Source: Escherichia coli
GTDB taxonomy: Bacteria; Pseudomonadota; Gammaproteobacteria; Enterobacterales; Enterobacteriaceae
Direction: 5' to 3' (one strand)
Assembly (NCBI RefSeq): GCF_030384885.1
Contig: NZ_CP128613.1
DNA length: 64,000 nucleotides
This document shows, in pieces, positions 1,078 to 33,402 of the stretch. The position numbers and the translations under genes are program-made. Each line of letters begins with the position of its first letter. The stretch's first letter is position 1. The notes beneath the pieces were generated by a model. It worked only from the letters and a program-made list of their open reading frames with translations, made no database searches and was not told the origin of the DNA.

Positions 1078-2280
1078 TTACAGCACCAGTGCTGCGATTG
1101 ACGCAGACAGCACACTCACCAGAGTAGAGCCGTAAACCAGTTTCAGACCGAAGCGAGAAACCACGTTACCTTGCTCTTCATTCAGGCCTTTAACCGCACC
1201 GGCGATAATCCCGATAGAAGAGAAGTTAGCGAAGGAAACCAGGAACACGGAGATGATGCCTTCAGCACGCGGAGAGAGCGTGGAAGCGATTTTCTGCAGA
1301 TCCATCATCGCAACGAACTCGTTGGAAACCAGTTTGGTCGCCATAATACTGCCCACCTGCAGTGCTTCACTGGAAGGAACACCCATCACCCACGCAACCG
1401 GATAGAAGATGTAGCCCAGGATGCCCTGGAAGGAGATGCTGTAGCCAAACCAGCCAGTCACAGTGGCAAACAGTGCGTTCAGCGCAGCGATCAGGGCGAT
1501 AAAGCCGATCAGCATCGCGGCAACGATAATGGCAACTTTGAAACCTGCCAGAATGTATTCACCCAGCATTTCGAAGAAGCTCTGACCTTCGTGCAGGTTG
1601 GACATCTGAATGTTTTCTTCACTGGCATCAACACGGTAAGGGTTGATCAGCGACAGCACGATAAAGGTGCTGAACATGTTCAGTACCAGCGCCGCAACGA
1701 CGTATTTCGGCTCCAGCATCGTCATGTATGCACCAACGATGGACATCGACACGGTGGACATCGCCGTAGCTGCCATGGTGTACATACGATTGCGGGAGAT
1801 TTTGCCGAGGATATCTTTATAGGCAATAAAGTTTTCAGACTGACCCAGAATCAGAGAGCTGACGGCGTTGAAGGATTCCAGTTTGCCCATACCGTTGACT
1901 TTGGAGAGCAGGAAACCAATTGCGCGGATAATCACCGGCAACACGCGAATGTGCTGGAGAATACCGATCAGCGCAGAGATAAAGACGATTGGGCACAGCA
2001 CTTTCAGGAAGAAGAATGCCAGGCCTTGATCATTCATGCTACCAAAGACGAAGTTAGTCCCTTCGTTGGCAAATCCGAGCAGTTTCTCAAACATTTCGGA
2101 GAAGCCTTTCACGAAGCCCAAACCAACGTCGGAGTTCAGGAAGAACCACGCCAGTAACACTTCGATAACAAGCAGTTGAATAACATAACGGATACGAATT
2201 TTTTTGCGGTCGCTGCTTACCAGCAGTGCGAGAATCGCAACAACGGCAAGTGCCAGTACAAAATGAAGGACGCGGTCCAT
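1078..2280 (-). CDS. nupC: Nucleoside:H+ symporter NupC (400 aa from MDRVLHF...)
   Basis: ORF 1078..2319; translation from the internal Met [37 protein letters not shown] matches NupC as I recall it. The ORF-track start is 13 codons further upstream. Confidence 0.9.
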
Positions 2281-2545
2281 ATTTGCTCCAAATATGAGGC
2301 AGGTTAAATTTCCGTGCACATTCTATGTAACATGGTTAAGGAAAACGAGATCTGACACACACTATAATGACGTCCTGTGACAAGCTTCAAAAATAGTGAG
2401 CTGTCATACATTTCTGCTATGTTGTGTATGGAAGCTGAAAGTTATGTAAATGTGCTAACATTAAACATAATCACAACATTCAAGTCATCAATCTTTTCGT
2501 CGTCATAATTCTGGTCTATCAAAGAAATCATCACAATCCACTTAA

Positions 2546-2566
2546 ATGAATTTGATAATCATTCTC
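2546..2566. promoter_or_regulatory. Fur box-like site in the mntH promoter
   Basis: tgaatttgataatcattctcg resembles the GATAATGATAATCATTATC Fur consensus; about 50-70 bp upstream of the mntH start. Confidence 0.5.
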
Positions 2567-2581
2567 GTTTGTCATAGCATG

Positions 2582-2603
2582 AAACATAGCAAAGGCTATG
2601 TTT
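2582..2603. promoter_or_regulatory. MntR operator-like palindrome upstream of mntH
   Basis: aaacatagcaaaggctatgttt is an inverted repeat (AAACATAGC / GCTATGTTT) just upstream of the mntH start codon. Confidence 0.6.
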
Positions 2604-2606
2604 TAG

Positions 2607-3854
<1,248 letters not shown>

Positions 3855-32071: not shown

Positions 32072-32082
32072 TGGATTTGCCC

Positions 32083-32988
32083 CTATATTTCCAGACACCT
32101 GTTATCACTTAACCCATTACTGGCCTGCTGCCGTAGATATTCCCGTGGCGAGCGATAACCCAGTGCACTATGCGGATGCCATTCGTTATAATGCTCGAAC
32201 GCCTCTGCAAGGTTCTTTGCTGCCGTTAACCCGTCTGGTTTAGGCATGACACTGATGTAGTCACGCTTTATCGTTTTCACGAAGCTCTCTGCTATGCCGT
32301 TACTCTCCGGACTCCGCACCGCCGTGTTCTTCGGTTCAAGCCCCAACATCCGGGCAAACTGCCGTGTTTCATTAGCCCGGTAGCATGAACCATTATCCGT
32401 CAGCCACTCTACTGGAGACGCCGGAAGCTCGTTGCCGAAGCGGCGTTCAACCGCTCCCAGCATGACGTCCTGTACTGTTTCACTGTCGAAGCCGCCCGTA
32501 GTGACCGCCCAGTACAGTGCCTCACGGTCACAGCAGTCCAGCGCGAACGTGACTCGCAGTTTTTCTCCGTTATCACAGCGGAACTCGAACCCGTCAGAGC
32601 ACCATCGTTGATTGCTTTCTTTCACGGCCACTTTGCCAGTATGTGCCCGCTTCGATGGCGGTACAGCGGTTTTTCGCTCAAGCAACAGCGCATTCTGGCG
32701 CATGATCCGGTAAACACGTTTGGCATTGATCGCAGGCATACCATCAAGTTCGGCCTGTCTGCGAAGCAGCGCCCATACCCGACGATAACCATACGTGGGC
32801 AGCTCTCCGATAACATGGTGTATACGGAGAAGTACATCCATATCATCTGAGTGACGGCTGCGGCGACCATCTTTCCAGTCATCGGTTCGTCTGAGAATGA
32901 CGTGCAACTGCGCACGCGACACCCGGAGACAACGGCTGACTAAGCTTACTCCCCATCCCCGGGCAATAAGGGCGCGTGCGCTATCCAC
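32083..32988 (-). CDS. insD: IS2 transposase OrfB (InsD), DDE integrase-like catalytic domain
   Basis: 301-aa ORF; normally expressed as an OrfAB fusion via -1 frameshifting in IS3-family elements. Confidence 0.88.
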
Positions 32989-33311
32989 TTTTTTGCACGC
33001 CCATATTCAACGGCTTCTTTAAGGAGTTCATTTTCCATCGTTTTTTTGCCGAGCAGGCGCTGGAGTTCTTTAATCTGCTTCATGGCAGCAGCAAGTTCAG
33101 AGGCAGGAACGACCTGTTCTCCTGCGGCCACAGCAGTAAGACTTCCCTCCTGGTATTGCTTGCGCCAGAGAAATAGCTGGCTGGCTGCCACACCGTGTTG
33201 CCGGGCAACAAGGGAGACCGTCATTCCCGGTTCAAAACTCTGCTGAACAATAGCGATCTTTTCCTGTGTAGTACGCCGTCTGCGTTTCTCCGGTCCTAAG
33301 ACATCAATCAT
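32946..33311 (-). CDS. insC: IS2 OrfA (InsC), HTH DNA-binding regulator of transposition
   Basis: Translation from [29 protein letters not shown] (121 aa); the ORF track extends 15 codons upstream into the IRL. Confidence 0.88.
32984..32993 (-). other. Slippery A-rich heptamer (A AAA AAG on the coding strand) in the insC/insD overlap; candidate programmed -1 frameshift site
   Basis: Plus strand cttttttg lies in the insC-insD overlap; IS3-family frameshifting is established knowledge, the exact position here is read from sequence. Confidence 0.55.
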
Positions 33312-33402
33312 CTGCTCTCCAATGACTAGTCTAAAAACTAGTATTAAGACTATCACTTATTTAAGTGATATTGGTTGTCTGGAGATTCAGGGGGCCAGTC
33401 TA

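Follow-up and report, generated by a model that had tools for sequence, protein, structure and literature searches.

The 58 bases from position 2546 to 2603 (ATGAATTTGATAATCATTCTCGTTTGTCATAGCATGAAACATAGCAAAGGCTATGTTT) of the window, by which we mean the whole 64-kb stretch of Escherichia coli DNA that was analyzed, fall in a region that is very probably the sigma-70 promoter and operator of mntH, arranged as has been described for E. coli K-12 and Salmonella. The region combines a cluster of two overlapping Fur sites, a perfect MntR-type palindrome, a predicted core promoter and a candidate OxyR-type site. Both the Fur and the MntR operators of mntH are already known and well described, and their identification here holds no novelty. 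Reviews and a RegulonDB-derived table state that Fur and MntR repress mntH independently via separate sites and that OxyR activates it, and Mn2+ together with Fe2+ turns the promoter off according to the literature. The remark in the original prediction that this is established biology was therefore correct, since the K-12 operators are identical and their dual repression is published. The mntH promoter is among the best-known cases in which two metal signals are integrated, with peroxide as a third. It is also useful as a positive control: both operators were located to within one base from the letters alone, and they are cleanly recovered by simple matrices made from other sites.

The gene downstream encodes an NRAMP-type Mn2+ importer, in agreement with the RefSeq annotation of a strain whose sequence is identical here. 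Its ATG lies 70 bases downstream of position 2546, and thus both sites fall within about 70 bp of the start codon, as had been proposed. The genes pdeA, ypeC, yfeO and glk surround mntH and the divergent nupC, as they do in K-12. The nupC-mntH intergenic bases (2320 to 2615) are present in 5,424 of 5,426 complete E. coli genomes, and strain 2013C-4282 is 100% identical to the window over this interval. The features are collected in Table 1.

Table 1. Features of the mntH control region, in window coordinates. Relative positions count from the predicted mntH transcription start near 2587; information is the mean per alignment column in 81 sequences (maximum 2 bits).
Feature	Positions	Strand	Relative to predicted start	Information (bits per column)	Score or basis
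nupC, nucleoside permease, divergent from mntH	1078-2280	-			
Far upstream segment	2466-2504			0.23	
Candidate OxyR-type activator site, ATAATTCTGGTCTAT-CAAAGAA-ATCATCACAATCCAC	2505-2541	n/a	-82 to -46	1.08	consensus match
Fur operator cluster, 25 bp, two overlapping 19-bp sites 6 bp apart	2545-2569	n/a	-42 to -18	1.79-1.86	matrix scan, published model, consensus, conservation
Second Fur site, 6 bp upstream of the strongest	2545-2563				10.7 bits
ypeD-type small ORF, 25 codons (29 in K-12)	2546-2623	+			K-12 annotation b4819 (L005 3188-3277, -)
Fur 19-mer matching the classical consensus	2548-2566			1.79	
Strongest Fur 19-mer, TTTGATAATCATTCTCGTT; centre 2560, -56 from the mntH ATG	2551-2569				22.1 bits
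Predicted -35, TTGATA, inside the Fur cluster	2552-2557	+			promoter scan; invariant in 81 sequences
Predicted -10, TAGCAT	2575-2580	+		1.68	promoter scan
MntR operator, perfect inverted repeat AAACATAGC-AAAG-GCTATGTTT	2582-2603		about -5 to +17	1.92	repeat finder, matrix, conservation
mntH Shine-Dalgarno, GAGG	2606-2609	+	+20 to +23		read from sequence; conserved in alignment
mntH ATG	2616	+	+30		
mntH, NRAMP-type Mn2+ importer	2616-3854	+			NCBIfam NF001923 MntH, 622.8 bits vs cut-off 430

The Fur and MntR boxes score like genuine operators

The check suggested in the original prediction, motif scoring with Fur and MntR matrices, was carried out, and both boxes score like genuine sites. Our Fur matrix is symmetric, spans 19 bp and derives from 12 K-12 sites proven by footprinting or gel shift, mntH being excluded. 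The training sequences, taken from K-12 DNA at the coordinates in Table 4 of Chen et al. 2007, are those of fepA-fes, fepD-entS, entC, fecI, fecA, gpmA, ryhB, sodA, fhuF, cirA, fhuA and exbB. Among the 63,982 positions of the window, the 19-mer at 2551 to 2569 ranks first with 22.1 bits, a value that falls within the span of the training scores (20.2-28.6 bits) and 9 bits above the next best score (13.2 bits). The published scan of K-12 employed an information-theory model of 24 proven Fur sites and listed mntH, with 19.9 bits, two walkers over 25 bp and the strongest site at -56, among 42 genome-wide clusters above 17 bits (Chen et al. 2007, PMC2189734). Because its row in that table bears no footprint or gel-shift flag, mntH was probably outside the published training set. 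Our own matrix reproduces the published cluster in its 25-bp length, its two sites and its -56 position.

Comparison with consensus sequences points to the same bases. GAATTTGATAATCATTCTC (2548-2566) agrees with the classical Fur consensus GATAATGATAATCATTATC at 15 of 19 positions and is the sole match with no more than four mismatches in the 64-kb window, where shuffled windows yield an expected 0.22 such matches; in shuffles of intergenic bases 2320 to 2615, a match of the same quality has P = 0.0044. With its score of 22.1 bits, the AT-rich, Fur-like box claimed upstream of mntH is thereby confirmed. Likewise, TGATAAT-C-ATTCTCG (2553-2567) shares 12 of 14 positions with the 7-1-7 core TGATAATnATTATCA and is the only match in 64 kb with at most two mismatches, as compared with 0.36 expected and at least one in 33% of shuffles. 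Such consensus-only counts are weak and uninformative at the scale of the window, and matrices were used instead.

The arms of the repeat assigned to MntR, a DtxR-family regulator, (2582-2590 and 2595-2603) are 9 nt each, 100% complementary and separated by a 4-nt spacer. A perfect 9-bp inverted repeat with a spacer of 0 to 12 arises in shuffles of the intergenic bases with P = 0.024, and the exact core ATAGC-N4-GCTAT occurs once in 64 kb. The MntR matrix was made only from the three K-12 palindromes that lie upstream of mntS and mntP, which, in the K-12 DNA around both genes, occur solely in the mntS and mntP regulatory regions, at the places of known MntR action. With this matrix, whose training sites had themselves been found by similarity to the mntH palindrome, the window site scores 27.6 bits and the runner-up in 64 kb scores 14.6. 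The perfect MntR-type repeat that had been claimed is thus present, in a 9-4-9 arrangement. The pattern-only statistics for both boxes are modest, and confirmation therefore rests chiefly on the matrix scores together with the phylogenetic footprint.

Two smaller observations concern the sequence next to the palindrome. CATAGCA is present as a direct repeat at 2573 to 2579 and 2585 to 2591, 12 bp apart, and the more upstream of the two shares bases with the -10 hexamer. An extra TATAGCTAT is likewise found beside the operator in the mntS promoter (L003 1577-1585). The additional CATAGCA copy is possibly an auxiliary half-site or merely the -10 itself.

Both operators are conserved across Enterobacteriaceae

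The footprint set comprises 80 mntH loci from species-representative genomes, with 89-99% protein identity, from about 25 genera (Escherichia, Citrobacter, Salmonella, Enterobacter, Klebsiella, Buttiauxella, Kluyvera, Raoultella, Atlantibacter and others), giving 81 sequences with the window included. The 150 nt located 5′ of the mntH start codon were aligned. Information in the two operators averages 1.8-1.9 bits per column and drops to 0.23 bits about 110 bp upstream. In the Fur region, CTTGATAATCATTC(T/G)CA is all but fixed, and the box contains 17 contiguous near-invariant bases that include spacer positions not read by RNA polymerase. Conservation of the Fur box is nevertheless confounded by the embedded -35 hexamer.

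This confounding bears on whether the box is an AT-rich promoter segment, made of the -35 and its spacer, whose likeness to the Fur consensus is accidental. The presence of TTGATA within the box fits that explanation, and a single 7-1-7 match in 64 kb is not unusual by chance, as noted above. Far more difficult to accommodate are the matrix score, which lies within the range of proven sites and 9 bits over the rest of the window, a partner site displaced by the characteristic 6 bp, and the run of 17 near-invariant bases that extends into the spacer. The P value from composition-matched shuffles of bases 2320 to 2615 is small, and Fur-dependent repression of the mntH promoter is published. We therefore regard a chance resemblance as extremely improbable and treat the box as a Fur operator.

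The palindrome is even more uniform, with only five variants in 81 sequences, all of them in the right arm or the spacer. The left arm AAACATAGC is invariant in every sequence, and the spacer reads AAAG in 80 of 81. The right arm is GCTATGTTT in 22 sequences, from Escherichia, Citrobacter, Salmonella and Kluyvera, and GCTATATTT or GCTATATCT in most of the remainder. A perfect palindrome is thus a lineage feature: the description "perfect" holds for the window, but elsewhere it applies only to those four genera. The near-invariance of the AAAG spacer and left arm stands out, in that the mntS and mntP sites use other spacers and yet the mntH right arm varies. This asymmetry may reflect an overlapping transcription start site. 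In one species, Trabulsiella odontotermitis TbOT1.10 (L033 ~1462-1500), 16 bp of the Shine-Dalgarno region are duplicated in tandem (TATTTCAGAGGCAGAA twice) in the stretch that runs from the MntR operator to the mntH start.

Seven E. coli strains picked to span the range of identity retain an invariant palindrome, and their substitutions fall in the linker (2567 and 2571-2574) or at tolerated Fur positions. The divergent lineages that were aligned differ in the Fur box only at such tolerated positions, and one of them carries C2564A, a change that brings the box nearer to consensus. Relative to K-12, the window has a single difference within 2546 to 2603, a T instead of a G at 2572, between the two sites; the Fur box is identical and the palindrome is the same base for base. 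The rest of the interval from 2496 to 2630 differs by a few upstream substitutions and a single silent substitution in codon 2 of mntH. When 20,395 records from 5,426 genomes were searched for the 58-mer, the window allele was rare (60 records) as compared with the K-12 allele (3,335 records).

Because both operators are identical to those of K-12, the dual repression by Fe-Fur and Mn-MntR known in K-12 would be expected to transfer to the window. The Fe2+-dependent component is taken from the literature, wherein a mntH promoter-lacZ fusion is Fur-repressed, and Mn2+-dependent MntR binding and repression at the window site would likewise follow from K-12 literature. The dual iron and manganese repression put forward in the original prediction is in this way supported by the matrix scores, the 80-species footprint, identity to K-12 and the K-12 literature.

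The predicted core promoter places each regulator in a plausible position

The promoter scan returned TTGATA-17-TAGCAT, a 9/12 match, from which we infer that mntH transcription starts near position 2587. An alternative promoter-like match, ATCACA-18-GATAAT, would start transcription near 2566, and its -35 is not conserved. Relative to the start near 2587, the layout is coherent, comprising an activator site, a site positioned for -35 occlusion and a site positioned for start-site occlusion. Two details of the original prediction, which placed both sites in the leader, are corrected by it: the palindrome spans the predicted start, and the Fur cluster lies in the promoter over the predicted -35 and not in the transcribed leader.

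This layout suggests how each signal could act. When iron is sufficient, Fe2+-Fur dimers would occupy the two overlapping sites and cover the -35 hexamer and most of the spacer, such that RNA polymerase would be kept off. When manganese is sufficient, a Mn2+-MntR dimer would bind the inverted repeat, which begins one base past the -10 and spans the predicted start, and open-complex formation or promoter escape would be blocked. The Fur cluster and the MntR repeat are separated by 12 bp and do not overlap, and thus either repressor could act alone. The exact steric mechanism would follow from the predicted start. The annotated 5′ end of mntS RNA falls in the centre of the mntS MntR palindrome, which supports start-site occlusion as the mode of MntR repression.

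The OxyR-type site would occupy an activator position upstream of the -35. The candidate matches ATAGnTnnnAnCTAT-N7-ATAGnTnnnAnCTAT at 13 of 20 defined positions, which is the best in the intergenic region, though 12 equal matches exist in 64 kb. Orthologous positions in other genera reach 14 to 16 of 20, and conservation is good in the promoter-distal half, AT(A/C)nTT...CTATCA(G/A)AGAAATCA. An OxyR site in the mntH promoter is described in reviews, and the candidate fits the peroxide induction known for mntH.

The predicted start also bears on whether the palindrome works chiefly at the RNA level, as a hairpin in the leader of mntH that serves as a 5′ stabilizer, attenuator or translational element, and not as a DNA operator. 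If fully transcribed, the repeat would form a 9-bp stem; the segment from 2582 to 2630 folds with -10.4 kcal/mol (z = -2.5), and 4 of 200 shuffles are as good. The constancy of AAAG in 80 of 81 sequences is what a conserved loop would show, although MntR sites elsewhere use ACAG, CAAA or TTAG. Covariation is what decides the matter. In 59 of 81 sequences, G2600 is replaced by A opposite an unchanging C2585, which leaves a C·A mismatch, and T2602 is replaced by C in 12 sequences, again uncompensated. Moreover, a start near 2587 lies inside the left arm and would leave a stem of at most 5 bp, and the homologous mntP palindromes sit about 360 to 420 bp upstream of their gene. A terminator scan found no terminator-like site, and Rfam covariance models applied to both strands of 2250 to 2750 produced no match at E ≤ 1, the Mn riboswitch (yybP-ykoY) included. 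We rejected the hairpin interpretation for want of compensatory change and consider it highly unlikely; the palindrome is read here as an MntR operator.

The small ORF ypeD coincides with the operators

A ypeD-type small ORF starts at 2546, the first base of the noted interval and a position within the Fur cluster. From there it runs through the promoter and the MntR operator and across the mntH start. Ribosome profiling detected ypeD and placed it in a group of seven novel small ORFs that have homologues beyond Escherichia and Shigella and were on that basis deemed likely functional (Stringer et al. 2021). In the window strain, PGAP calls only a 14-codon ORF (2579-2623).

Given these reports, the block from 2546 to 2623 could be conserved because it encodes YpeD, wherein the constraint would act on the protein and not on operator function. 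Annotation as b4819 in K-12, the profiling signal, the homologues beyond Escherichia and an ATG shared at the aligned site by 72 of 81 sequences are all in keeping with this proposal. The reading frame itself, however, behaves otherwise. Its length is 8, 11 or 23-31 codons in the 81 sequences, two of which instead read through into mntH, and three different frames are used past the Fur box. Translation would stop at 11 codons in about half of the genera and after 8 amino acids in three representatives of Escherichia-group species. Early stops occur even in E. coli: in the U13A-type allele, identical in 727 of 20,395 records (5,426 genomes), a TAA cuts ypeD to 8 codons, and in the window the synonymous mntH change from ACG to ACT creates the TAA that shortens it to 25. 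Thus, frame, length and peptide are not maintained among relatives, nor is length within E. coli. The sole conserved peptide, M-N/I-L-I-I-I-L, is merely the translation of ATGAAyTTGATAATCATTCTC, which is the Fur box, and the same type of palindrome lies upstream of mntS and mntP without such an ORF.

In addition, the ypeD start codon is at about -41 from the predicted mntH start, 5′ of the predicted -35. The ribosome-profiling signal would therefore require a transcript from another promoter farther upstream, and our promoter scan of the plus strand upstream of 2530 found none scoring at least 9/12. We judge it very improbable that protein constraint accounts for the conserved block. From these sequence comparisons, ypeD is probably not a conserved protein, and its conservation looks best explained by operator constraint. 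A note of caution follows for similar cases, because a small ORF counted as conserved lies wholly on transcription factor binding sites, and such overlap can mimic conservation at the protein level.

It is unlikely, in our estimation, that the mntH control region carries a further layer beyond its three known regulators, be it the reading of ypeD or the nearly invariant spacer and left arm. One hint of such a layer is the detection by ribosome profiling of ypeD, whose frame opens in the Fur cluster and closes at the mntH start codon or shortly beyond it. Were a transcript from farther upstream to carry ypeD, its reading might be coupled to mntH translation or repressor occupancy, or might disturb them. 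Similarly, the nearly invariant AAAG and left arm may mean that a second constraint operates on the initial transcribed sequence or on a short 5′ hairpin.

The region resembles characterized manganese-responsive promoters

The closest counterpart is the mntH promoter of E. coli K-12, which is reportedly subject to dual repression by Fe2+-Fur and Mn2+-MntR. It serves the same gene between the same neighbours (nupC and ypeC), has identical operators and also places its Fur site at -56. It differs from the window at base 2572, a few upstream bases and mntH codon 2, and in a ypeD of 29 instead of 25 codons. The mntH promoter of Salmonella enterica is likewise said to contain OxyR, Fur and MntR elements, and its order of OxyR-like site, Fur site, -10 and MntR palindrome is the same as in the window. 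Salmonella subspecies loci (L015 and L016) have the same perfect palindrome and a Fur box nearer to consensus (ATTATCA), but they diverge from the window in the upstream sequence and in the linker that joins the two sites.

MntR sites are also said to be present at mntS and mntP of E. coli K-12. The site of mntS (rybA), AGATATAGC-ACAG-GCTATATTA, and the two of mntP, GAATTTAGC-CAAA-GCTATGTTT and AGACATAGC-TTAG-GCTATATTA, share with mntH the 9-4-9 arrangement around an ATAGC-N4-GCTAT core. Unlike the mntH repeat, these palindromes are imperfect and have spacers other than AAAG. The mntP sites are far upstream and activating, whereas at mntS the RNA 5′ end coincides with the centre of the site. 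Dual metal repression through separate Fur and MntR operators has reportedly been observed also at the manganese-uptake promoter of Salmonella sitABCD, a different gene that is absent from this window.

Additional features of the window

A second conserved block, at about 2370 to 2450 and nearer to nupC, contains CRP-like TGTGA motifs (cTGTGAc-N-TCAAAAaTAGTGA...ATACATTT), and its conservation reaches from Escherichia as far as Buttiauxella and Klebsiella. This block is presumably the nupC regulatory region. Within it, TGCTATGTT (2415-2423) is an exact 9-nt copy of an MntR operator arm and was considered as an auxiliary MntR half-site. We rejected this candidate because it sits in the separate nupC-proximal block and reads GTTATGTT in most genera, and the 9-nt identity is coincidental.

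Farther along, the window differs from related strains in three places. Relative to the close strain 2013C-4282, a 1,331-bp copy of IS2 (32072-33402) interrupts emrK; it carries TnpA and TnpB ORFs on the minus strand and has 33-nt imperfect terminal inverted repeats. At about 43247 to 43267, beside tRNA-Arg, the window is without about 3.6 kb that 2013C-4282 possesses (L098 41932-45588), a prophage remnant with torI, a PACE transporter gene, a LysR regulator gene and a pseudogenized intS. A sucrose-utilization cluster (cscA, a LacI-family regulator, a kinase and an MFS transporter) adjoins dsdA at about 36600 to 41500, coordinates that come from annotation transferred from L098 and are to be shifted by +1,336 for the IS2 insertion. 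In K-12, dsdC and dsdX are found where the window has this cluster, which constitutes a strain-specific replacement.
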